The notes: a model not told the origin generated them from the sequence alone. DNA of 64,000 nt from Candidatus Saccharimonadota bacterium (GCA_016700315.1 CP065013.1:321449-385448); one strand, 5' to 3'; positions 6,881 to 59,698 are shown, numbered from the stretch's first letter. A program made the numbers and translations.

Positions 6881-7146
6881 CCCTTAGCCCCTAGACCCTG
6901 GTCCGTAGGAGGTACGCGGTACGAAGTACGGGGTACTAAGTAGTAAACATGAAATTCTAAATTCTAAATAGTATCAAGTATTACGTATCTTGTATCAAGT
7001 ATGAACTCGCACCTAGAGCCTAACCACTCTAACCTCTAACCTCTAACCTAATCCTAGCTCTTGTCTCTTGTATTTTAACCATAAACTATCAACTATCAAC
7101 TCGTCCCTAGTCCCTAACCGCTCTAACCTCTAACCTAATCCGGTAC
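6881..7146. repeat. compound heptanucleotide tandem-repeat island (about 38 consecutive 7-nt units in one phase)
   Basis: Parsed in 7-nt steps from 6881: cccttag cccctag accctgg tccgtag gaggtac gcggtac gaagtac ggggtac taagtag ... taaattc taaattc ... tatcaag ... tctaacc x3 ... gtctctt ... aactatc x2 ... ccctagt ccctaac ... acctcta x2. No ORF. Lies between convergent genes. Confidence 0.8.
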
Positions 7147-13999: not shown

Positions 14000-15670
14000 T
14001 CACATTTTTTCGGGAGCGTGAATACCTAAAAGGTCTAGCCCAGCTTTTAGGGTGTCAGCATATCTGCCGACTAGCCAAAGCCTGAGTTCCTCTCGATCAT
14101 CTGAGCCAATAACTCGGTTTTGCTCGTAAAAACGGTTAAATTCTTGCGCTAATTCGTAAAGGTAAGTACAGATATAATGAGGCATAAGCTCGCGAGTTGA
14201 CAGCTCAACTACCTCAGAAAATTCGCCGATTTTTCTGACTAATAGTCTTTCGCCCGGCTGAAGCTTAGAGTTGATAGTTGATAGTTGATAGTTGATAGTT
14301 GATTTGCTTAGGATGCTGCGCGCCCGAGCGTGAGCATATTGGAGATAAGGGCCAGAGTTACCCTCTGTCGCCACCGACTCTAGCGGGTCATAAACAATAT
14401 CGCCGCCGATTCGGCTCTTTGAAAAAGCATACTTAACGGCCGCCAAGACTGTCGACTCATCTGCTTCGGGGCTCGCTTGTCGAGCCGACTGAAGTATGTC
14501 GATGGCACCGACAATATTGCCTTTTCTTGAACTCATTTTTACACCACCCTGTAGCTTCACAACACCGTGAGTCAGATGCAGGGTTCTGCTGGCCGGTTCT
14601 GGGGCAAACTGCTCTATGCTTTTTATGACAACCTGCATGTACTGTGCTTGTTCATTAGCAGTTATGATGATCGATTTATCGAAGTGGTAATCCTGCCACT
14701 TTGTCAGGCTTAGACCAACGTCTTTGGCCTCATAGGTTGGCAAACCTTCTGAGTTGATGAAAACTCGGTTGTGAAGGCCAAACTTTTCTCCTTCAAATAT
14801 CACCGCACCGCCACTTTGCGCATAAACACCCTTTGCCAGCTGCTCTTTGACCGTAGTTAGCCCGAGCGGAGTTACTTCGCTTTCAGGTATAAATCTATCA
14901 AATGCTGAAACTTCTAGCTGCTTGTAAAGTTCCTTGAAATACTCGTAGCTCCATTCGCGACAAAGCCAATAGACCTTAGCGAAATCGGATTCATGATCAC
15001 CCGTTTCGTGAACTGAGTAGATAGCCTTATTGGCTTCGACGATTGCTACTCGAGCCGATTCATCGTCCTCATAAGCATTGTTGCCTTCAACATAGCGCTC
15101 ACCTAGCCATTTTGGTCTTTCAGACCCATCAACTTCGTCAAGTTTGGCTGGTTGGCCGTCAAGCCACCGCATTATCGCCCACATACTCTTGGCTGCGTGC
15201 AGTCCTACATCACCACCGAAGTTAAGCCGAACTACTTCGGCTCCAGCGTACTCAACCATTCTGGCAATAACGTCGCCAACCAAAGTTGTGTACAGATGCC
15301 CGGCATGCAGCGGTTTAAACGGGTTGGGGTCAGAGTACTCAACCAGAACTTTTTGGCCACTATAGGTTTTTACTGCCGAAGCTTTTGTAAGTTCGATAAG
15401 TGCCGCGTCGGTAAGTTTGATATTGATAAATCCTGGCCCCGCTACTTCGGCGCTTAGAATGTCACCGCCAACAAGCTGCTCGCAAATTGACTCAGCGATG
15501 GCTCTAGGGCCGCCTGCAGGCGGGTTTTCTAATTTGCCAGCTAGCTGCAAAGCAACGTTTGTTGAGAAATCACCAAACTTAGCCTCTGGCCTCGTCAAAA
15601 CCACCTCCAAGTCGAAGCCGAACTGGGCCGACACCAACTCCCCAACTTTACTTCTCAAATTCTCAAACAT
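14000..15670 (-). CDS. argS: arginine--tRNA ligase
   Basis: PNPFKPLHAGHL (HIGH), MSSRKG (KMSK-like), and the C-terminal DALR anticodon-binding region. Contains a heptamer-array-encoded insert STINYQLSTINSK. Confidence 0.95.
   Translation of the reverse strand: MFENLRSKVGELVSAQFGFDLEVVLTRPEAKFGDFSTNVALQLAGKLENPPAGGPRAIAESICEQLVGGDILSAEVAGPGFINIKLTDAALIELTKASAVKTYSGQKVLVEYSDPNPFKPLHAGHLYTTLVGDVIARMVEYAGAEVVRLNFGGDVGLHAAKSMWAIMRWLDGQPAKLDEVDGSERPKWLGERYVEGNNAYEDDESARVAIVEANKAIYSVHETGDHESDFAKVYWLCREWSYEYFKELYKQLEVSAFDRFIPESEVTPLGLTTVKEQLAKGVYAQSGGAVIFEGEKFGLHNRVFINSEGLPTYEAKDVGLSLTKWQDYHFDKSIIITANEQAQYMQVVIKSIEQFAPEPASRTLHLTHGVVKLQGGVKMSSRKGNIVGAIDILQSARQASPEADESTVLAAVKYAFSKSRIGGDIVYDPLESVATEGNSGPYLQYAHARARSILSKSTINYQLSTINSKLQPGERLLVRKIGEFSEVVELSTRELMPHYICTYLYELAQEFNRFYEQNRVIGSDDREELRLWLVGRYADTLKAGLDLLGIHAPEKM
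14270..14304. repeat. heptanucleotide tandem array (GTTGATA)x4 plus GTTGATT inside the argS coding sequence
   Basis: gttgatagttgatagttgatagttgatagttgatt was read directly. The reverse-complement unit TATCAAC also occurs in the 6881-7146 island (aactatcaactatcaac). Confidence 0.85.
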
Positions 15671-26695: not shown

Positions 26696-26723
26696 ATTGT
26701 AAATTGAAAATTGAAAATTGAAA
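26696..26723. repeat. heptanucleotide tandem array ATTGTAA plus (ATTGAAA)x3 in a divergent intergenic region
   Basis: attgtaaattgaaaattgaaaattgaaa was read directly. Confidence 0.8.
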
Positions 26724-26753
26724 AATTAGCTTATTAATTACTCGGGGGTGGGG

Positions 26754-34507: not shown

Positions 34508-34564
34508 TTCACATTTCCCTCCTCTGTATAAGGACGGACCTTATACAGAGGAGTTGGGCGTGAA
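34508..34564. repeat. long palindromic element, copy A
   Basis: ttcacatttccctcctctgtataagg-acgga-ccttatacagaggagttgggcgtgaa. The perfect core is ctcctctgtataagg/ccttatacagaggag. The flanks (about 34440-34640) are also similar to copy B in inverted orientation. Confidence 0.8.
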
Positions 34565-34703
34565 TTGGGCGGTTTGCTCAAGATTTAGAGTGTTGTGGAG
34601 GTCTGAGTTATGGTTAGATCGCTATATGGCTTTGCCCAACAGGTCTAAGGAGCACCGGCTAGCCTTGGTTCTTACCTCTTATCTCTGCTACCATGTAACA
34701 GAT

Positions 34704-35810
34704 ATGATCGTTTTAGGGATTGAAACCAGTTGCGATGAAACTTCGGTCGGGATTGTCGAGCTTAACGATACAAGCAAAGGGGCGACACTCTATGCCAACG
34801 CCGTGCTTTCAAGCATGGACTTACACACAAAATACGGTGGAGTTGTACCCGAAATAGCTGCCCGTGAACATATCAAAGCTATGCCTATCGTTATCGAAAA
34901 AGCTTTTGAGCAAGCTGGCATGAGTTGGGAAGATATAGATGCTATAGCCGTAACTAACGGCGCCGGGCTTGGCGGATCGTTGCTTGTCGGTGTAATGACT
35001 GCACGAACCCTAGCCATTACCCAGAACAAACCACTATATGCCTGCAACCACGTCGAAGGTCATGTGTACGCTAACTTTTTAACAAGCCAACAGTCAACAG
35101 AAGACAGTCGACAGAAAACTCAACTTAGCAACTACCAGCTACCATCTACCACACCCCAGTTCCCTATCCTTGCACTGATTGTCAGCGGAAATCATACTCA
35201 ACTAGTCCTCTTTAAAGATCACTTTGATTATAGGTTACTCGGCCAAACTCACGATGATGCTATAGGTGAGGCTTTTGATAAATGCGCCAAAATAACTGGT
35301 CTCCCCTACCCTGGTGGCCCGTCGATTGCCGCCAAAGCCAAAGAGGGCGATACTCAAGCCTTCGATCTGCCAAAAGCGAAAATGCCAGGTAAGTACGACT
35401 TCAGCTTCTCTGGCGTAAAAACCGCTACTCTAAGACAGGCTCAGGCCATGTGTGGTGAGGATTTCACCTTTCCGTCTAAGAACCTGCCAGAACGCCTCTC
35501 AGAGCCTCAGAAGGCCAACATTGCTGCCGTGTTCCAACGTGTCGCGATCGAAACCGTGGTCGACAAGACAGCTTTGGCTTACGAAGAGTTCGGTCCCGCT
35601 TCTGTGATCATCGCAGGTGGTGTCGCCGCCAGCACGGAGCTACGCCGCCAACTATCTGAACGTCTGCCGATGGACATAAACTATGCCGATATCAAGCTAT
35701 GCACGGACAATGGAACTATGATTGCCTGCCTTGGGGCATACAAAGCTCTATTAGGCCAACCCAAAGCCGAGCCATACTCTCTAGAAATCAATCCCAACCT
35801 ATCTATGTAA
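34704..35810 (+). CDS. tsaD: tRNA N6-adenosine threonylcarbamoyltransferase TsaD
   Basis: MIVLGIETSCDETSVGIV..., HVEGHV, and GGVAAS. The start is set at ATG 34704 because the track's 50-aa N-terminal extension reads through the palindromic repeat. The stop TAA (35808-35810) overlaps the MITE terminus. Confidence 0.9.
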   Translation: MIVLGIETSCDETSVGIVELNDTSKGATLYANAVLSSMDLHTKYGGVVPEIAAREHIKAMPIVIEKAFEQAGMSWEDIDAIAVTNGAGLGGSLLVGVMTARTLAITQNKPLYACNHVEGHVYANFLTSQQSTEDSRQKTQLSNYQLPSTTPQFPILALIVSGNHTQLVLFKDHFDYRLLGQTHDDAIGEAFDKCAKITGLPYPGGPSIAAKAKEGDTQAFDLPKAKMPGKYDFSFSGVKTATLRQAQAMCGEDFTFPSKNLPERLSEPQKANIAAVFQRVAIETVVDKTALAYEEFGPASVIIAGGVAASTELRRQLSERLPMDINYADIKLCTDNGTMIACLGAYKALLGQPKAEPYSLEINPNLSM

Positions 35811-36102: not shown

Positions 36103-36568
36103 CGTAGTAAATATAGCAACGTTATGGTCTCTGTATTTGATAGTATTGACGAACTATGATATGCTTATGCTTGTAAAACAAAAATGGTTGTACTGACTGC
36201 AAGCCAATGCGGTTCGCACTTTTGAGACAAAATACAACTTAGACAGGAGCTAACAGATGACTTTCACGTGAAAGTTTATGTTGGTTTTTGTCTTTTTTTG
36301 GTATTTTTACCGTTTTATGGTCACCTTTCATTACCGTAGCCTTCATGTGGTCGTGTGAATACGCTCCCCTCGACCTTCCTGTTCAATGTTCTATGTCATG
36401 GCTGACAAATATTGCCTGCCGGCCTCTCTTGCAACTAAAGTATGCTGGTTTTATATTCAACTCTAAGAAGCTGGGGTTCTCCTCATGACAGGCGTCTCAT
36501 GACTCTTGTCTCGCTTGCTTCTTGCTTATGCTTTATACTTACCACTTTCTACTTTATACTTATTTCAT

Positions 36569-40973: not shown

Positions 40974-41218
40974 GCGGAGGAGTACCCAAGTGGCTGCTGC
41001 GTGAAACGTAAATTTGTAGACGGTTTGCCGTCCCCTTCAGTTTACGGACACACAGGAGCTACGTGAATAACGTAAGCTTTCAATGCGGAGGAGTACCCAA
41101 GTGGCTGCTGCGTGAAACGTAAATTTGTAGACGGTTTGCCGTCCCCTTCAGTTTACGGACACACAGGAGCTACGTGAATAACGTAAGCTTTCAATGCGGA
41201 GGAGTACCCAAGTGGCTG
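40974..41218 (+). repeat. 111-bp tandem repeat (2.2 copies) whose unit begins with the 5' part of tRNA-Ser(GCT)
   Basis: Units start at 40974, 41085 and 41196, each with gcggaggagtacccaagtggctg. Units 1 and 2 continue with an 88-nt non-tRNA segment, and unit 3 continues into the complete tRNA. Confidence 0.9.
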
Positions 41219-41290
41219 AAGGGGACGGTTTGCTAAATCGTTAGGGGGGCGCAAGTTCCCGCGAGAGTTCGAATCTCTCCTCCTCCGCCA
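41198..41290 (+). tRNA. tRNA-Ser (anticodon GCT), class II, CCA encoded
   Basis: Hand-folded. Acceptor GGAGGAG/CTCCTCC, anticodon stem acggt/atcgt with loop ttGCTaa, long variable arm, T-arm gagag-ttcgaat-ctctc, and G73-CCA. Confidence 0.85.
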
Positions 41291-42922: not shown

Positions 42923-44095
42923 ATGCCAGAAAAAGCCCCGTTTAACCCCCACCAATCGTCTCATGACAGCTCTGACCTGGGTGGTGCTGTAGACCCATCA
43001 ATTTTGAGCGGTAACGCCCCTTTGCAGATACGCTTCAACACTTTCGCAGAAGCTAGAACGACCCCAAGACCTTTCTCTGACGAGTTTATTGACACTTTTA
43101 CCGATACTCCTACAGCGATTAACGGTATCAAGAGTTATCTTGACGACGTAAAGCCAACCTACAGAGATAAAGAGGTCATAGGCGACTCAGACCGCATCGC
43201 CGAGCTGTATATTAAAACAACGGAAATGATAGCCCGTAATTTGCGCGTAAAGGTAGACCAGGGTAAAGCTGGTGTAACCGCAGAGCAAATCCAAAGAGAT
43301 GGCGAGGCGACACTCCAAAGACTATGGGGATACAGAGTTAATGTACCAGAGGGGCTGAAACGCCATCATATTAGCGCAACAAACCCGCAGGCAACAAATA
43401 AAGACAAGTTTTTAGATGACGAAACAATATCAGGATTAGAGTATAGGGGTTTCGATTTTAATCGCCCGGGCGTACGCGCCAACTTCCATATTCAGCGTCA
43501 AAACTTTACAACATTTATTATGGCCTATTCCGACGGTCGCGTGCAGGAAAAAATGGCCGGCACGAGCACGATTTTAGACAAAAGAATATACCTAAATCCC
43601 GATATGGAAGCTACGCCAAGACTGTTTGAGCAATTGCTTCAGGCAGCCAACCAAGCAGGTATACCTATACAACTAAAGATGGTTCAACGAGCAACGGAGG
43701 CACTAAACGCACACCTTAAAGCCGCTAAAGGCGATGAAGTAGGGTTGCGCGGCGATGGAATTGTGGTATATACAGACGGCGAACACGCTGATGATACTTT
43801 AGCTATGGTGCTTGCTTTGGCACAGGACAACTCAGACGCTTTTAGGGGCCGTCCTCATAGTCGCACGCCTCAGAATGTTGCCGAAGGTATTGGTATAGCT
43901 GACGAACCAATTCAAGAGCCTGGTATTTCACTAACTTCTCATAGAACAGAGGTGTTGAAGAGTGTTGCCGGACAAGTTGCAGCGTCAGGGAAAAAGGGCG
44001 ACGAAGCGCATGCTATGTTCCGCCATTTATGGCAAAACACGGCGGTAGCCAACGGTATTGACCCCAACAATCTTGCCTTTAACATAGCTACATAA
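42923..44095 (+). CDS. hypothetical protein (390 aa), orphan on a repeat-bounded islet
   Basis: Long ORF. The pattern KRIYLNPDMEATPRLFEQLL...IQLKMV...GDGIVVYTD only weakly reminds me of HopA1/lyase-like families and is not verifiable here. Confidence 0.55.
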   Translation: MPEKAPFNPHQSSHDSSDLGGAVDPSILSGNAPLQIRFNTFAEARTTPRPFSDEFIDTFTDTPTAINGIKSYLDDVKPTYRDKEVIGDSDRIAELYIKTTEMIARNLRVKVDQGKAGVTAEQIQRDGEATLQRLWGYRVNVPEGLKRHHISATNPQATNKDKFLDDETISGLEYRGFDFNRPGVRANFHIQRQNFTTFIMAYSDGRVQEKMAGTSTILDKRIYLNPDMEATPRLFEQLLQAANQAGIPIQLKMVQRATEALNAHLKAAKGDEVGLRGDGIVVYTDGEHADDTLAMVLALAQDNSDAFRGRPHSRTPQNVAEGIGIADEPIQEPGISLTSHRTEVLKSVAGQVAASGKKGDEAHAMFRHLWQNTAVANGIDPNNLAFNIAT

Positions 44096-55097: not shown

Positions 55098-56378
55098 ATG
55101 GCTACTTATAAGGTGATCCAGGATATTGAGGCTGAGGATAAGTTAGTTGGCCCGCTGAGTTTGAAGCAATTTATCTTTGCCTTGATAGCAATTTTCCTTG
55201 GATTTTTGATATTTAAGTTGGCAATCGCGGAAGTCTTGGGCCTACTGCGTTGGCTATTTATAACTCTGCTGTTGCCGCCAACCTTACTTTTTGCGGTGCT
55301 GGCAGCTCCAATTGGTGGCGACCAATCGACCGAATTATGGCTATTAGCTAGGATAAGATTTATGCTAAAACCTCGAAAGCGGATATGGAACCAGGCTGGG
55401 CCAAAACAGCTGGTCACTATAACCGCACCAAAAAAGCTTGAAAGACGGCTTACAAAAAACTTTAGCCAAGACGAAGCCAGAAGCCGGCTAGGAGCTTTGG
55501 CTAATGTTATGGACAGCCGCGGCTGGGCAGTTAAGAACGTAAATGTTAATCTAAATGTAATGCAGAATGACGGTTATACCAGTGAAGATGACGACAGGCT
55601 GACTCCCGCCCTAGCAGTACCACAACAGGTGGAAATGGCCGACATATCTGCTGCCGACGACATCCTTGATGAATCAAACAACTCTACTGCGCAACATTTT
55701 GACGAACTGATCGATGAGAGTGAGCGGGAGCACCGCGATTTGCTACAAGAACAAATTGACCGCGCTCGATATGAAAAGCAGACAACCTCGTTGCCAGAGC
55801 CAAACGTACCAGAATCTGTCAACATGTGGTTCGAGGGTAAGGGCAGACAGCCAAACGTCGATCAAGGAACTAGCGAAAGGGTGGCAGTACCAAATGCACA
55901 CCCTAAAGAAGAAGAGACCTTAGAGTATGCGGATTTGCCCGACGTAAATTATGTGCATGGTGGTGGTGGCCAAACTATCACCCCAGGTACGGCAAGCGTT
56001 AGCTCTATAGCCGCAGCCGGTTCGACCTCTACAACAAACGATGCCGCTGACCCCTCTAGTCTCGACGAAAAGGAACTGCTAGAGAAGGTCCGGCAGAAGC
56101 AAACGCAATCGTCGCAAGCTAACACCTTCGGACATTTGAAACGACTTAAGCCATTACAGGGGAGCGGGGGTGACAGGGAGCAGAAAGAAGGGAACGAGGA
56201 ACGAGAAGTAGGTGACGGTGAGGAGCAAGATAAGCAAAAGCAGGATAGCCCCAAAAGCCCCAACCCTGTTATAATTAACATGTCCAAAGACAACGACAAA
56301 ACAGTGTCCACACTGGCACGCCAGGCCCGTGAAAATAAAACAGGCGACGGCGAAGTTGTTTTCCATATTGATCATTAG
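55098..56378 (+). CDS. PrgI/VirB3-like membrane protein with a long acidic, disordered C-terminal extension
   Basis: N-terminus YKVIQDIEAEDKLVGPLSLKQFIFALIAIFLGFLIF plus a second TM pair matches the PrgI-family opening pattern. The C-terminal ~300 aa are low-complexity. Confidence 0.5.
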   Translation: MATYKVIQDIEAEDKLVGPLSLKQFIFALIAIFLGFLIFKLAIAEVLGLLRWLFITLLLPPTLLFAVLAAPIGGDQSTELWLLARIRFMLKPRKRIWNQAGPKQLVTITAPKKLERRLTKNFSQDEARSRLGALANVMDSRGWAVKNVNVNLNVMQNDGYTSEDDDRLTPALAVPQQVEMADISAADDILDESNNSTAQHFDELIDESEREHRDLLQEQIDRARYEKQTTSLPEPNVPESVNMWFEGKGRQPNVDQGTSERVAVPNAHPKEEETLEYADLPDVNYVHGGGGQTITPGTASVSSIAAAGSTSTTNDAADPSSLDEKELLEKVRQKQTQSSQANTFGHLKRLKPLQGSGGDREQKEGNEEREVGDGEEQDKQKQDSPKSPNPVIINMSKDNDKTVSTLARQARENKTGDGEVVFHIDH

Positions 56379-56401: not shown

Positions 56402-57211
56402 ATGAATCCTAATAATTTTCGAACTGGTTCAGGAGCTAGCAACCAAGCCAATGTGATTGGCCCACAACAGTCAACAGCAAAAAATAACTCGAATAGCACC
56501 CAGAACACACTTCAAATTGCCGAAATTCGCGATGGAATTGTGATTATGAACGATGGCACTTACCGAGCGGTCTTAATGTGTAAGAGCATTAACTTCGATC
56601 TAATGAGTACCCAGGAACGCGAAGGCGTAGAGTACGCCTATCAAGGCTTTCTGAACTCGCTTTACTACCCGATTCAGATTTTCATCCGTAGCCAAAAAGT
56701 TGACTTAAGACCGTATCTAGAGAAGATGCAAAAAATACGCAGCGAGCATGACAACATGCTTTTGGCGCTCATGATGGAGGACTACATTTCCTACATGGCA
56801 TCTCTGGCCGACCAAGTTAATATCATGGATAAAAAGTTCTACGTGGTAGTACCCTTTATACCAACCGTTGACGCTCAGGCCATTGTCCAAGGTAGCAAGA
56901 ACTTTTTGAGTGGGCTATCTAGTACTTTCAACAAAAAAGAAAGCCATGTCACCATCAACGAAGCAGAGTTGCAAAAAGCCAAGGATGAGCTGAAAAACCG
57001 CGTCCAATCCGTCATGCAAGGTCTGATGCAATGTTCTGTGCAGAGTCTCCCGCTCGATACTCAAGAGCTAATAGAGCTTTTCTACGACTTTTATAACCCA
57101 GACACCGCTACAAGACAGCAGATAAAAAACTTTGATGATCTGAGCGTGCCTGTGATCACTAAAGGCCAGGGTCAAGCACCGCAACCGCAGTTGAATAGGA
57201 CTTTGCAGTAA
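56402..57211 (+). CDS. protein resembling the N-terminal domain of Gram-positive VirB4-type ATPases (269 aa)
   Basis: LQIAEIRDGIVIMNDGTYRAVLMCKSINFDLMSTQEREGVEYAYQGFLNSLYYPIQIFIRSQKVDL matches the opening domain pattern of Tn916 Orf16 / PrgJ-type VirB4 as I recall it. Its stop overlaps the start of the four-helix-bundle gene (TAATG). Confidence 0.45.
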   Translation: MNPNNFRTGSGASNQANVIGPQQSTAKNNSNSTQNTLQIAEIRDGIVIMNDGTYRAVLMCKSINFDLMSTQEREGVEYAYQGFLNSLYYPIQIFIRSQKVDLRPYLEKMQKIRSEHDNMLLALMMEDYISYMASLADQVNIMDKKFYVVVPFIPTVDAQAIVQGSKNFLSGLSSTFNKKESHVTINEAELQKAKDELKNRVQSVMQGLMQCSVQSLPLDTQELIELFYDFYNPDTATRQQIKNFDDLSVPVITKGQGQAPQPQLNRTLQ

Positions 57212-57669
57212 TGAACGAGGAACGAGGAACGAGGAACGAGGAGAATAACATAATTTCTTCCGTTTCGATTATCGGGAACGAGGAACGAGGAACGAGGAAC
57301 GACAGCAAGATTAAAACTTTCTTTGATTTGGATGCCTGGCAGGAGTCTCATAATCTGTGCCTGCTTTCCTACAAATTAACAAAAAGTTTTCCAAATGAGG
57401 AATTGTACGGCCTAACAAGCCAACTTAGACGAGCAGCGGTGTCCGTTACATCAAATATTGCTGAAGGATTTTCAAGAGAAAGCTACTCTTATAAATGTCA
57501 TTTTTATACTATGGCTCACACGTCTATATCTGAACTAATTTCGCAAGCATACTTAGCAAAAGATCTGACGTATATTAAGCCAGATGAGTTTGATTCATAT
57601 TATGAGCTAGCCCAAAAAGCTTATAAAATTCTTGGCGGCCTGATAAAAGCAACTAAGGAGCGAAAATGA
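57211..57669 (+). CDS. four-helix-bundle protein (23S rRNA intervening-sequence protein / Avd family)
   Basis: Hallmark LDAWQESHNLCLLSYKLTKSFPNEELYGLTSQLRRAAVSVTSNIAEGFSR...ELISQAYLAKDLTYI. The first ~30 codons are encoded by the heptamer arrays (NEERGTRNEE...NEERGTRND). Confidence 0.8.
   Translation: MNEERGTRNEENNIISSVSIIGNEERGTRNDSKIKTFFDLDAWQESHNLCLLSYKLTKSFPNEELYGLTSQLRRAAVSVTSNIAEGFSRESYSYKCHFYTMAHTSISELISQAYLAKDLTYIKPDEFDSYYELAQKAYKILGGLIKATKERK
57213..57303 (+). repeat. two in-phase heptamer arrays, (GAACGAG)x4 and (GAACGAG)x3 plus GAACGAC, at the left end of the four-helix-bundle cassette
   Basis: The arrays are at 57213-57240 and 57276-57303. Their offset is 63 nt, which is 9 x 7. 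Confidence 0.85.
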
Positions 57670-57710
57670 GCCTACGCAAACAAGAAATTATTTTTCCTAG
57701 CATTTTATCG

Positions 57711-57738
57711 TCGTTCATCGTTCATCGTTCATCGTTCT
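57711..57738 (-). repeat. heptamer array (TCGTTCA)x3 plus TCGTTCT at the right end of the cassette
   Basis: tcgttcatcgttcatcgttcatcgttct. The reverse complement is (TGAACGA)n, so the GAACGA core is inverted relative to the left arrays. Confidence 0.85.
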
Positions 57739-57766
57739 GCATTACAAAACCCAAGGGGGTTTTGTA

Positions 57767-59698
57767 ATGTTTGGACGAAAGAAACAACAGCAGCTTGACC
57801 CAATTGCTCTAGCACAAGCCCAACGCGACAGAGAACAAGCCGAGGTCGCGGCGGCTTTCCAAAAAGGTATCACCGAGCTTCGAGACTTTATTGCTCCTGC
57901 CAGCCTAGAGTTCAAGTCTAGCAGTGTCCAAATTGGGACTAGATTAGCAAGAACATACTACGTTTACGGCTACCCCCGTAGTCTATACACTGGCTGGATG
58001 AGTGGCATGGTCAACATTGACGAGGTAATAGATTTATCCATCTATGTTTACCCTGTTGAGAGCCAGGTAGTGATGGAGAACTTGCGCAAAAAGGTCACCC
58101 AGCTTGAAGCCGGCCTAATGATCGATGCCGACAAGGGACGCGTGCGCGACCCTGCAAAACAGGCAGCAATCCAAGACGCTGAAGAAATGCGCGATAAGCT
58201 TCAGGTTGGCGAAGAGAAGTTCTTCCGACTAGGCTTCTACTTCACAATCTATGCTCGAGATGACGAGGAGCTAGAATTTGTCGCACATAAAGTTGAAAGC
58301 CTGCTTGGCCAGCAGCTTGTCTACAGCAAACCTTCTAGTGCACAGCAAGAGCAGGGGCTAAATTCCGTTGCTCCACAGTTTGTAGACCAGCTGCAAATAC
58401 GACGAAACATGAGCACCGGCGCCATAAGCACTTCCTTCCCTTTTACTAGCGCCGATTTGACCCAAGATAACGGTATACTTTACGGCATCAATATGCACAA
58501 CTCCGGCCTAGTGATATTTGATCGATTCTCGCTCGAAAACAGCAACTCGGTTGTCTTTGCAAAGTCTGGAGCTGGCAAAAGCTTCACCGTAAAGCTTGAG
58601 GCGCTGCGTAGTATGATGTTTGGTACTGAGATATTTATAATTGACCCAGAGAATGAATACCAGCGGATGTGTGAAGCCGTCGGCGGCGCCTATGTTCGCT
58701 TAAGCTTGAGCTCTTCAACCCGTATCAATCCGTTTGACCTACCGAGAGTCATAGACGCCGAAGACGGTGACAACCCCCTGCGTTCAAACCTCATTACGCT
58801 ACACGGTCTGCTGCGTTTGATGATGGGTGGCGCCCAAGCTCAGATGGCTGCCAGCCAAGGAGCGCAAGGCTCTGTCATGATGCCGGCTCTAGCACCAAGT
58901 GAAGAGGCCGACCTCGATGCTGCACTTATTGAAACCTACGCCAAGGCGGGCATCACCAACGACCCGCTAACGCACGGCTCTATGCCTCCTACAATCTCAG
59001 ATCTATATGAAACACTGCTTCACATGGGTGGCAACGGCCCGCAGCTAGCCCAACGCTTGCGTAAATACACCAGCGGAACCTTTGCTGGTATTTTTAGCCA
59101 GCAAAGCAACATCGATATCAACAATGCTATGGTCGTTTTTAACATTCGTGATCTTGAGGATGAGCTCCGCCCAGTCGCCATGTATATAGTTCTAAACTTC
59201 ATTTGGAACAAAACAAAAACCGACAAAAAACGGCGCATCTTGATCGTTGACGAAGCTTGGCAGCTGATGAAATATGAGGATTCAGCCAGTTTCTTGTTTA
59301 GCCTGGCCAAACGAGCTCGTAAATACAACCTTGGTATCACCACCATTACTCAGGACGTGGAAGATTTTATGGGCTCTCGTATGGGGCGGGCAATCGTTGC
59401 TAACGCCAGCATGCAGATTTTGCTCAAGCAATCGCCGTCAGCCGTTGATGTTTTGAGTGACGTTTTTAAGCTTACCAGCGAGGAAAAGAAACGTCTCAGC
59501 CAGTTCCCGGTAGGACAAGGCCTCTTCTTTGCTGGCCAAAATCACGTTCATATACAAATCGCCGCAAGCCCAACCGAACAAAGTCTCATCACCACCAATC
59601 CTGGCGACAACAGAACACAGCAGATCCAATTTTATGGCCAGGCTCAGGGTGATGTGAGCTTGGAAACGGCCAGCTCAGGGAGTGTGGAGCTAAGGTAA
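57767..59698 (+). CDS. virB4: VirB4-family type IV secretion ATPase (central and ATPase domains)
   Basis: FIAPASLEFKSSSVQIGTRLARTYYVYGYPRSLYTGWMSGMV, Walker A FAKSGAGKSF, Walker B RILIVDEAW, and GITTITQDVEDF. Confidence 0.85.
   Translation: MFGRKKQQQLDPIALAQAQRDREQAEVAAAFQKGITELRDFIAPASLEFKSSSVQIGTRLARTYYVYGYPRSLYTGWMSGMVNIDEVIDLSIYVYPVESQVVMENLRKKVTQLEAGLMIDADKGRVRDPAKQAAIQDAEEMRDKLQVGEEKFFRLGFYFTIYARDDEELEFVAHKVESLLGQQLVYSKPSSAQQEQGLNSVAPQFVDQLQIRRNMSTGAISTSFPFTSADLTQDNGILYGINMHNSGLVIFDRFSLENSNSVVFAKSGAGKSFTVKLEALRSMMFGTEIFIIDPENEYQRMCEAVGGAYVRLSLSSSTRINPFDLPRVIDAEDGDNPLRSNLITLHGLLRLMMGGAQAQMAASQGAQGSVMMPALAPSEEADLDAALIETYAKAGITNDPLTHGSMPPTISDLYETLLHMGGNGPQLAQRLRKYTSGTFAGIFSQQSNIDINNAMVVFNIRDLEDELRPVAMYIVLNFIWNKTKTDKKRRILIVDEAWQLMKYEDSASFLFSLAKRARKYNLGITTITQDVEDFMGSRMGRAIVANASMQILLKQSPSAVDVLSDVFKLTSEEKKRLSQFPVGQGLFFAGQNHVHIQIAASPTEQSLITTNPGDNRTQQIQFYGQAQGDVSLETASSGSVELR

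Follow-up and report, generated by a model that had tools for sequence, protein, structure and literature searches.

A probable intervening-sequence-type cassette with inverted heptamer arrays at the native stop/start junction of a two-protein VirB4 in a Saccharibacterium

The stretch of DNA analysed here (64,000 nucleotides, hereafter the window) contains a Saccharibacterium chromosomal type IV secretion locus in which VirB4 is natively encoded as two proteins, and the junction of their genes is occupied by a small cassette of the kind known as intervening sequences (IVS) in rRNA. Four ORFs follow one another in series on the + strand, which also carries all features described below. These are ORF1 (56402-57211; 269 aa), encoding a stand-alone TraC-like or VirB4 N-terminal-domain protein, the cassette ORF (57211-57669; 152 aa), a relay ORF (57666-57767; 33 aa, MSLRKQEIIFPSILSSFIVHRSSFCITKPKGVL) and ORF3 (57767-59698; 643 aa), which encodes a VirB4-type ATPase identified by profile and PDB matches. 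We consider it moderately probable that an IVS-type cassette has settled in a native, coupled VirB4 junction and that expression of the ATPase is restored through a relay of ORFs. There are no rRNA genes in the 64-kb window, the cassette lying between two protein-coding genes, and a simple consensus scan revealed neither a promoter-like site on the + strand of the cassette nor a terminator-like site on either strand. A group I or II intron or an intein was rejected, since no Rfam family matches the cassette region at e-values up to 1 and the reading frame of the cassette ORF differs from that of ORF1 and ORF3.

Residues 34-136 of ORF1 align with positions 2-104 of the NCBIfam profile NF045971 (e-value: 1.6e-6), and further matches were obtained with NF045975, VirB4_plasma, TrsD (NF041427) and TraC, while ORF3 covers positions 179-732 of NF045971 (Bitscore: 354.6, cut-off: 325; e-value: 1e-105) and matches PDB entry 4AG5 (1.4e-50). 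A sequence-profile search of the PDB found no relative of ORF1; the best fourteen PDB matches of its AlphaFold model, which is of low confidence (pLDDT 57), are all TrwK/VirB4 chains (Foldseek). An earlier note on this DNA had delimited both ORFs, had recognised ORF1 as a VirB4 N-terminal-type protein and had proposed a tiling check, all of which stands, ORF1 covering the N-terminal part and ORF3 the ATPase part of VirB4. Its central proposal, that the cassette had split a formerly single virB4 in the interdomain linker, does not. The tiling of full-length VirB4 profiles by ORF1 and ORF3 in one common frame speaks for such a split, but relatives that lack the cassette still encode the two ORFs separately, typically with a TAATG, TGATG or ATGA overlap, which is the very observation that the note had named in advance as counting against its reading. 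Furthermore, no fused protein was found among the best 120 homologues of ORF1 (all 254-373 aa, with PF26593 recorded on all) or its best 150 cluster representatives (50% clustering, down to 34% identity; all 110-478 aa), and stand-alone TrsD-type N-terminal proteins constitute a recognised family (NF041427). The stop codon of ORF1 lies at most 5 nt from the ATPase start, mostly overlapping it, in 56 of the 77 Saccharibacteria species loci. As the ORF1 homologues are all stand-alone and the junctions are this tight, the division of virB4 is considered ancestral, and its disruption by the cassette is very improbable. Judging from these sequence comparisons, the cassette landed in a pre-existing intercistronic junction and did not split virB4; in annotation, the two-protein form of VirB4 in Saccharibacteria is to be treated as the native state rather than as a broken gene.

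The inserted unit, put at about 530 bp in the earlier note, is a 555-nt insertion at the stop/start junction, and the empty sites which that note suggested seeking in related type IV secretion loci exist. The junction is empty in the closest relatives, L005 and L006 (ORF1 88% and ATPase 95% identical), and a second pair comprises the empty locus L010 and the filled locus L019, whose common tract of 99-100% identity indicates recombination. In the ATPase tree the filled loci are scattered, and their nearest neighbours are mostly empty. The cassette was found in fourteen independent contigs and is therefore no assembly artefact, with the identical protein always encoded at the same locus (14/14); sister contigs carry an allelic ATGA overlap in place of TAATG at the boundary of ORF1 and the cassette ORF. 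At this one junction, cassettes of three divergent lineages are found, and as BLASTP detects no similarity between the cassette proteins of the window and of L060, though both belong to PF05635, they are too divergent for a recent common origin. Related cassettes occur upstream of atpG (L105), between RNR genes, between cas6 and cas4, and in rRNA. The sequence GTAATG is present at both cassette ends (57208-57213 and 57764-57769), but it is identical to the stop/start motif, and at the other filled sites ATG alone is common to both ends. There is thus no clear target-site duplication. Of the other features of a transposon or MITE, terminal inverted repeats are present, but no transposase was found and the 64-kb window holds no second copy. 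At the DNA level, the cassette could spread by homologous recombination of its flanks, without any activity encoded by the element.

The cassette protein belongs to a four-helix-bundle family related to the Avd accessory protein of diversity-generating retroelements, as the earlier note had supposed. It matches PF05635 (Bitscore: 116.3, cut-off: 33.8; e-value: 9e-34), TIGR02436 (Bitscore: 112.5, cut-off: 24; e-value: 1e-32) and XCC0516 (PDB 2GSC; 3.5e-20), residues 39-142 forming the four-helix-bundle core; by homology to the latter structure it is probably a pentamer of such bundles. In the GLTSQLRRAAVSVTSNIAEG stretch, R73/R74, S78, N82 and E85 are invariant in 21 homologues. A family motif, GxxRxxxSxxxNxxE, is quoted in the part of PMC3936711 considered here; the nearest glycine of the cassette protein, G67, lies six residues before R73 rather than the three of the quoted motif, so that both the position and the spacing of the glycine differ. 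Typical homologues are 122-144 aa in length and lack the N-terminal extension, which here consists of 31 codons made up of the heptamer arrays themselves.

These arrays lie where the earlier note had placed them, as do the TAATG overlap (57209-57213; TAA at 57209-57211, ATG at 57211-57213) and the roughly thirty array-derived codons that it had remarked upon. Left array 1, (GAACGAG)x4, occupies 57213-57240 and left array 2, (GAACGAG)x3 followed by GAACGAC, 57276-57303; the second begins 63 nt (9 x 7) 3' of the first and thus shares its phase and reading frame. The right array, GTCGTTCA-(TCGTTCA)x2-TCGTTC (57710-57737), is the inverted complement of the left ones, with one G/A mismatch per heptamer unit. 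Left array 1 and the right array are contained in a longer inverted repeat that runs beyond the cassette into the flanks, its 44-nt arms (57202-57245, taking in the last codons of ORF1, and 57705-57748) being 77% complementary; arms of 28 nt are 89% complementary. With at most two mismatches allowed, the window contains 11 matches to the array pattern, where shuffled sequence would give 0.28, and array 1 is paired with the right array in the predicted centroid RNA fold (fold energy z-score: -3.24). Mismatches between paired arms comprise 37 G.U and 67 A.C, and as G.U is not in excess over A.C, the arms do not support selection for a sense-strand RNA stem; a role at the DNA level or in protein binding is equally possible. 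A search for further four-helix-bundle genes flanked by such arrays, also advocated in the note, was productive: inverted heptamer arrays of about four units, with the consensus GAATNAN, accompany the gene family across phyla, and 74 of 80 such genes carry them. The unit core GAAT-N-A-N is conserved on both arms, which speaks for recognition of a specific sequence rather than for pairing alone.

The cassette appears to be arranged so that ribosomes can traverse it and reach the downstream gene. The ATG of the relay ORF overlaps the cassette stop (ATGA), and its frame passes through the right array and the terminal hairpin to a TAA that runs into the ATPase ATG as TAATG; the same arrangement was found in L019, L020, L060, L092 and L105. 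An unbroken chain of overlapping or nearly abutting ORFs is present in all eighteen inserts of at least 79 nt at the ORF1/ATPase junction, which comprise five cassettes and thirteen ORF-less inserts of 79-166 nt, as well as in two short spacers of 27 and 34 nt. When the interiors of the short inserts were shuffled, the chain was retained in 4-35% of trials each, giving a product over the thirteen inserts of ~3e-10, and shuffled cassettes retained it in 0-2 of 500 trials. The relay frame is free of stop codons over 2151 nt, whereas the two remaining frames contain 55 and 45. The terminal hairpin (57740-57769) has 13 perfect pairs, between 57740-57752 and 57757-57769, and the loop AAGG; it includes a Shine-Dalgarno-like AAGGGGG (57753-57759), and the ATPase ATG (57767-57769) forms part of its 3' arm. 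All 13 pairs are kept in the cassettes of the window, L019 and L020, which are 62-67% identical, and five pairs have changed on both sides. Predicted folds of the start region are stronger in filled than in empty sites (medians: -12.35 versus -6.5 kcal/mol; p=1e-4), and on these energy predictions the hairpin may sequester the ATPase start codon. The exit module of relay ORF, Shine-Dalgarno hairpin and ATG recurs in the related cassette upstream of atpG (L105). The relay is not general to the cassette family: among 80 metagenomic cassettes, tight coupling to both neighbouring genes was seen in only 7, and L127, of a distant lineage at the same junction, has no relay.

We propose that VirB4 is natively composed of a TraC-like N-terminal protein and an ATPase whose genes would be translationally coupled through overlapping stop and start codons. 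The AGGA within the end of ORF1 (57197-57200), recognised by comparing the window with the empty site of L005 (AATAGGACTTTGCAATGATG), is a putative Shine-Dalgarno-like signal of the host; it lies 10 nt 5' of the cassette ATG here and, where the junction is empty, precedes the start of the ATPase gene. The cassette, whose ATG overlaps the ORF1 stop downstream of this AGGA, would thus capture the host initiation site. Ribosomes terminating on ORF1 would reinitiate on the cassette ORF at TAATG, and those completing the latter would reinitiate on the 33-codon relay ORF at ATGA. Translation of the relay would cross the right array and melt the hairpin holding the ATPase start codon, and the TAA/ATG overlap at its end would pass the ribosome on to the ATPase gene. 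Three consecutive reinitiation steps might be inefficient. The inverted arrays could also close the cassette into a long stem, of the type that is an RNase III substrate in rRNA IVS.

This last property leads to another reading, in which RNase III cuts the array stem and thereby releases ORF1 and the ATPase gene on separate mRNA pieces, the latter piece starting near the Shine-Dalgarno hairpin, and the small ORFs are by-products. The anatomy is that of the Coxiella IVS, which is cut by RNase III in its repeat stem; the long inverted repeat is in place, the predicted fold pairs the arrays, and the ATPase has its own Shine-Dalgarno-like sequence 3' of the right array. However, the stem is weakened by one mismatch per heptamer, G.U is not enriched among the arm mismatches, and a start codon inside a hairpin would hinder independent initiation. 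The relay frame is moreover open at 18/18 loci despite differing insert sequences, which would not be expected from processing alone. Cleavage would be compatible with the relay; as the explanation of the locus we hold it unlikely.

Still less likely is a non-mobile, locally evolved intercistronic regulator, its protein a vertically inherited and often lost accessory or regulator of the type IV secretion system. The single copy in the window, the filling of the same junction in many species and the ORF-less inserts, which could be regulatory stems, agree with this, but the divergence of the three lineages at the junction, the related cassettes in unrelated junctions (atpG, RNR, cas6/cas4) and rRNA, and the mostly empty nearest neighbours of filled sites do not. 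The homology of Avd to PF05635 proteins and a weak match to NF033474 (e-value: 0.0028) might suggest that the cassette is what is left of a diversity-generating retroelement, its protein being the Avd. That match scores 18 bits where this Avd model requires 80, the same cassette recurs flanked by host operon genes only, and no reverse transcriptase-family match was found in ORF1, ORF3 or 20 large ORFs elsewhere in the window, as the earlier note had also concluded; this origin is scarcely tenable. An IVS-type and presumably selfish cassette, with the ATPase reached through the ORF relay, accordingly remains our preferred reading.

The S23p/four-helix-bundle family is large, widespread and related to Avd, and has no known function, while rRNA intervening sequences have been puzzling for more than 30 years. 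The present locus shows that an element of the IVS kind also occurs in mRNA, where it occupies the meeting point of a stop and a start codon. Its clean empty and filled alleles and three independent lineages make it possible to test how specific insertion is, how the RNA is processed and whether the protein binds its own heptamer arrays. Through the overlapping-ORF relay, an insertion in a coupled gene pair could easily remain without harm, and such relays can be searched for elsewhere. More tentatively, it is possible that S23p genes with heptamer arrays, ORF-bearing rRNA IVS, many STRR/GGGAATC-type pairs and the ORF-less inserts form one unrecognised class, which would colonise conserved RNA helices and intercistronic junctions, have 4-5 heptamers per end recognised by a pentameric protein, and survive in coupled operons through a carried translational relay of overlapping ORFs and a start-codon hairpin.

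Among known systems, the TrsD/TrsE split VirB4 of Gram-positive conjugative plasmids likewise has a small separate N-terminal protein just 5' of the ATPase (NF041427); its sequence similarity to the Saccharibacteria pair is only distant, and the likeness concerns the split and not the cassette. Rickettsia palindromic elements and Neisseria Correia elements, the latter being RNase III substrates, are small inverted repeats that persist since host frames or operon expression stay intact. Neither is known to carry a four-helix-bundle gene, heptamer arrays or an overlapping relay-ORF chain. Avd shares a homologous four-helix-bundle fold with the cassette protein and assembles as a pentamer into an RNA-binding barrel of positive charge. 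Unlike Avd systems, the cassette has inverted heptamer arrays at its flanks, has no reverse transcriptase match in the ORFs scanned and falls short of the Avd-specific model.

Heptamer repeats have been described as the STRR of cyanobacteria, the GGGAATC repeats of Xanthomonas, including 70-75 inverted pairs, and the TAACTGA repeats of Beggiatoaceae (PMC4692102, PMC4679880). As far as the passages covered extend, they resemble the cassette arrays in their period of 7, about four units, intergenic positions within operons, inverted pairs and length variation among close relatives. The unit GAACGAG is a different variant, and in those passages no four-helix-bundle gene is associated with the arrays, an association seen here for 74/80 genes. 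Genes annotated as 23S_rRNA_IVP have been reported within cas operons, e.g. between cmr3 and cmr2 (Zhang and Ye 2013, PMC3936711), and in Anabaena sp. 90 a gene of this family lies between cas6 and cas4. In the passage covered, such genes were read as having a possible CRISPR-associated function, with no mention of flanking repeats or coupling.

The closest counterparts are the ORF-bearing 23S rRNA IVS of Coxiella burnetii and Leptospira, which share with the cassette a PF05635 protein, 5' heptamers, a terminal inverted repeat around the ORF, a size of ~430-560 nt and a sporadic distribution suggesting horizontal spread. The Coxiella IVS combines an S23p ORF and two to three tandem GACAGAT heptamers, variable in copy number, with a terminal inverted repeat of 28 bp, and RNase III cleaves it in vitro (PMC4990558). 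Excision by RNase III without religation, which further characterises rRNA IVS, is putative for the cassette. Furthermore, the rRNA IVS sits in a 23S or 16S rRNA helix, while the cassette is placed at the mRNA stop/start junction of two protein genes and, unlike its rRNA counterparts, is linked to the upstream gene by TAATG and to the downstream gene by a relay ORF and a start-codon hairpin.

The VirB4 homologue of this locus is encoded in two parts, namely a TraC-like protein corresponding to the VirB4 N-terminal region (ORF1; 56402-57211) and a VirB4 ATPase (ORF3; 57767-59698), between which lies an ORF (57211-57669) coding for a 152 amino acid four-helix-bundle protein, a clear member of the PF05635/TIGR02436 family. 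The three ORFs, the TAATG overlap and the heptamer arrays described in an earlier note on this sequence were all located where it had placed them, and its proposal that ORF1 and ORF3 together tile a VirB4 protein was upheld by profile matches of both and fold matches of ORF1. ORF3 was identified as the VirB4 ATPase by profile and PDB sequence matches, while ORF1 is matched by several VirB4-family profiles at their N-terminal positions, and also by that of the stand-alone TrsD family. A PDB search with a sequence profile of ORF1 homologues returned chance-level matches only, and a fold search was hence performed, in which all 14 best PDB matches of the ORF1 AlphaFold model, itself poor (pLDDT 57), were TrwK/VirB4 chains.

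The insertion of a cassette at this position, as proposed in the same note, stands, but the accompanying claim that it split virB4 does not, since relatives lacking the cassette keep ORF1 and the ATPase as two genes. The closest relative of the window (loci L005/L006; ORF1 88% and ATPase 95% identical) contains ...AATAGGACTTTGCAATGATGTTTGGG... where the window carries the cassette, while the junction is likewise empty in locus L010 and filled in its near relative, L019, so that the empty sites that the note had suggested looking for do exist. All 77 evaluable Saccharibacteria species loci (80 fetched) encode ORF1 and the ATPase separately, with 5 nt or less between the ORF1 stop and the ATPase start in 56 of these, and a one-base overlap of the TAATG/TGATG type is the commonest arrangement among all loci examined. 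The 120 best ORF1 homologues are all 254-373 amino acids long, and the 150 best representatives of 50%-identity clusters, down to 34% identity, all fall between 110 and 478 amino acids, with none of those 150 reaching the length of a fused VirB4. The native state of ORF1 and the ATPase is a putative translationally coupled gene pair.

This junction has been occupied repeatedly. Fourteen independent metagenomic contigs carry the identical cassette at this locus, and an assembly artefact can thus be rejected. The same junction is occupied in loci L019 and L020 by cassettes with proteins only 62-67% identical, and in L060 and L092 by a PF05635 member without BLASTP similarity to the protein of the window. 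Yet another cassette (L127, 1420-1950), with GAATNNN arrays, no relay ORF and an untranslated spacer of ~100 nt before the ATPase, is found at the TraC-like/VirB4 junction of a distant lineage of the candidate phyla (36% identity in ORF1 and 47% in the ATPase). In 13 further species the junction holds inserts of 79-166 nt without a cassette ORF, most of which are bounded by inverted 7-nt repeat arrays whose unit sequence varies by species. Filled sites are scattered across a tree of the ATPase, where most of their nearest neighbours are empty. The flanks of L019 and L010 are about 87% identical (77-95%), with an embedded tract of 99-100% identity ~800-1500 nt into the ATPase gene, which indicates a probable recent recombination between the cassette-bearing and cassette-free lineages. 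Among population variants of the window locus, the right array (57710-57737) shows concerted change: its three A residues at position seven have all become G in L014, and one has in L018. Comparison of loci L011-L018 with window positions 57201-57211 reveals three alleles, restricted to the last ORF1 codons at the left junction, while the remainder of the cassette is almost invariant. No second copy of the cassette protein was detected in the 64-kb window by tblastn, no transposase was found, and there is no convincing target-site duplication, the candidate being indistinguishable from the SD-stop-ATG module that both junctions require. The element is an S23p cassette of the type known from rRNA intervening sequences (IVS), sitting in a stop/start junction that was already there, VirB4 being natively split.

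A 33-codon relay ORF (57666-57767), absent from the earlier note, connects the cassette to the ATPase: its ATG overlaps the cassette stop (ATGA) and its TAA overlaps the ATPase ATG (TAATG), such that ORF1, the cassette ORF, the relay ORF and the ATPase form a chain with an overlap at every joint. An unbroken chain is present in all 18 inserts of at least 79 nt at the junction, with one small ORF spanning from the ORF1 stop to the ATPase start in the ORF-less inserts. When insert interiors were shuffled with the ends fixed, the chain was kept in 4-35% of trials for each short insert and in 0-2 of 500 trials for cassettes, and the relay frame contains no stop codons over 2151 nt, against 55 and 45 in the other two frames. 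The first 31 codons of the cassette protein, an extension encoded by the left arrays, are absent from most homologues (122-144 amino acids), and this extension likely serves to place the start codon onto the ORF1 stop, 10 nt downstream of AGGA; in empty sites, the same AGGA precedes the start codon of the ATPase. The element terminates in a 3′ hairpin (57740-57769) whose loop is SD-like and whose 3′ arm includes the ATPase start codon. All 13 of its pairs are kept in three related cassettes, with five pairs changing on both sides, one of these changes accompanying the switch of the relay stop from TAA to TGA. Folding of the start region is stronger in filled than in empty sites (median -12.35 vs -6.5 kcal/mol; p = 1e-4). 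Simple scans of both strands of the cassette for terminator-like sites, and of its + strand for promoter-like sites, found none.

The same exit module recurs before an unrelated gene. In L105 (490-945), and in the same arrangement in L106, a related cassette with GAACGAC-type arrays lies between an upstream ORF and a gene which, from its N-terminal sequence (MASTQQIKARIKSVKNTKQITK), we take to be atpG, and it ends in an ATGA overlap, a 21 amino acid relay ORF and a hairpin whose loop contains GGAG, directly before the atpG ATG. Termination-reinitiation coupling along the ORF chain would be the simplest reading of this architecture, whereby translation of the relay ORF would open the hairpin and bring ribosomes to the ATPase start, maintaining co-expression of both VirB4 halves. 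A conserved translational relay is likely the reason that the cassette is tolerated. Tight coupling on both sides was observed in only 7/80 metagenomic cassettes and is lacking in L127; the relay belongs to cassettes at coupled junctions rather than to the family as a whole, for which it was rejected as a general property. Many GAATTAT-type arrays furthermore carry TGA or TAA in every frame, and read-through is therefore not possible in these.

The left heptamer arrays (57213-57240 and 57276-57303) start 63 nt apart and thus share a 7-nt phase and reading frame, and the array motif, allowing up to two mismatches, has 11 occurrences in the window, where 0.28 would be expected by chance. The sole other exact GAACGAGGAACGAG in the window (56192-56205) lies in the Glu-rich tail of a PrgI-like ORF (GNEEREVG) and is probably coincidental coding sequence. 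Among 80 metagenomic loci that code for proteins related to that of the cassette, examined for the generality of the arrays, a period-7 array is present within 160 nt upstream of the core in 74, downstream in 62 and on both sides in 57, while arrays of period 7, 14 or 21 number 212 in 26 kb of flanks, compared to 115 in the remaining 173 kb. The consensus unit of the left arrays is G-A-A-T-N-A-N, that of the right arrays is the reverse complement thereof, and the modal copy number is four on both sides. Plasmids of other phyla carry four-helix-bundle genes in the same arrangement with other units, including GGGAGTA/CCCTACT in Nostoc, between ribonucleotide reductase genes, and GGGTGTA/CTACACC in Calothrix and GGTTYAA/AAACCTT in Riemerella, flanking the four-helix-bundle gene. 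In plasmid pANA02 of Anabaena sp. 90 (L103, 835-1120), the spacer separating cas6 from a four-helix-bundle gene is occupied by ~40 tandem GGTGACA/GGGAACA heptamers, with cas4 next after that gene. In two species, second four-helix-bundle cassettes, both on the - strand, are located upstream of the T4SS locus in L042 (2879-3211) and at the orthologous position in L092 (393-734), with differing inverted heptamer arrays (GAGTCCN-type and GAGAGGT-type). The latter is preceded (~810-900, - strand) by the truncated start of another four-helix-bundle ORF (MATNSFKDLFVWQKSSH, then a stop) with its own AGCTNAT arrays, which suggests a possible nested insertion or replacement. In predicted folds the right array of the window pairs with either left array. 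Mismatches in arm pairing, tallied as a test for selection on the sense RNA, show no enrichment of G.U (37) over A.C (67), possibly through composition bias, and the arrays may thus matter as DNA or protein-binding sites rather than as an RNA stem. As a conjecture, the GAAT core conserved at both ends and a mode of four units would fit recognition by the cassette protein as a putative pentamer.

Heptamer arrays are not confined to the cassette, and period 7 or 14 accounts for 18/33 tandem-repeat rows in the window. The TsaD ORF (34554-35810) includes ~72 nt of heptamers on the + strand (35088-35160; CAACAGT CAACAGA AGACAGT CGACAGA ... CAACTAC CAGCTAC CATCTAC), translated in frame to TSQQSTEDSRQKTQLSNYQLPSTT, which lies between the HxEGH motif and the SG(N)HT motif, and the Pfam TsaD match is broken into two stretches; this looks like an in-frame insertion of heptamer arrays in a housekeeping gene. 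A perfect (AGTTGAT)x5 array on the - strand (14269-14303) is read in frame as STINYQLSTIN in the ArgRS ORF (14000-15670), close to where the match to the DALR anticodon-binding domain begins. Six arrays (6905-7136; GTACGAG-like, AAATTCT, AGTATCA, CTCTAAC twice, and AACTATC) fill a 350-nt spacer between convergent genes, with GTACGAG and CTCTAAC partly complementary, and may represent an ORF-less element of the same kind. Further arrays are a TTATACT-like x5 directly upstream of the likely true ValRS start (36526-36561; ATG 36570) and (ATTGAAA)x4 between divergent genes (26696-26724). A perfect tandem duplication of a 111-nt unit (40974-41218; 2.2 copies), which starts like the 5′ half of a tRNA-Ser, runs into the real tRNA-Ser(gct) (41198-41290). 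Adjoining a tRNA gene cluster, a 390 amino acid ORF (42923-44095) has an above-cut-off Pfam match to the HopA1 effector family (PF17914; 2.2e-8), which is unexpected in a Saccharibacterium.

Other classes of element were considered for the cassette. An intron or another described RNA family was rejected, as 57100-57850 matches no Rfam family at E-values up to 1, and a diversity-generating retroelement, since no reverse transcriptase was found among the 20 other large ORFs scanned in the window, which include ordinary housekeeping genes; an intein was likewise rejected. Neither the cassette protein nor ORF1 had a match in PADLOC. A literature search mostly outside subscription journals yielded no paper that connects heptamer arrays with both four-helix-bundle genes and relay ORFs. 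The literature thus covered holds the pieces, namely IVS anatomy, heptamer repeats and PF05635 genes in operons, and not their combination. Passages of one study describe heptamer repeats as over-represented in Xanthomonas and Nostoc, with 70-75 inverted heptamer pairs, mostly of four units, in Xanthomonas, and draw no connection to a four-helix-bundle gene (PMC4692102). PF05635 genes have been reported within rRNA insertions of candidate-phyla bacteria (PMC11270868) and, in part of a further study, between cas genes (PMC3936711). In the 23S rRNA IVS of Coxiella burnetii, a 28-bp terminal inverted repeat borders the S23p ORF, GACAGAT tandem heptamers of strain-dependent copy number lie ahead of the start codon, and RNase III cuts within the stem in vitro (PMC4990558). 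With its S23p ORF, terminal inverted repeat and heptamers, this IVS has the same anatomy as the cassette in the window.
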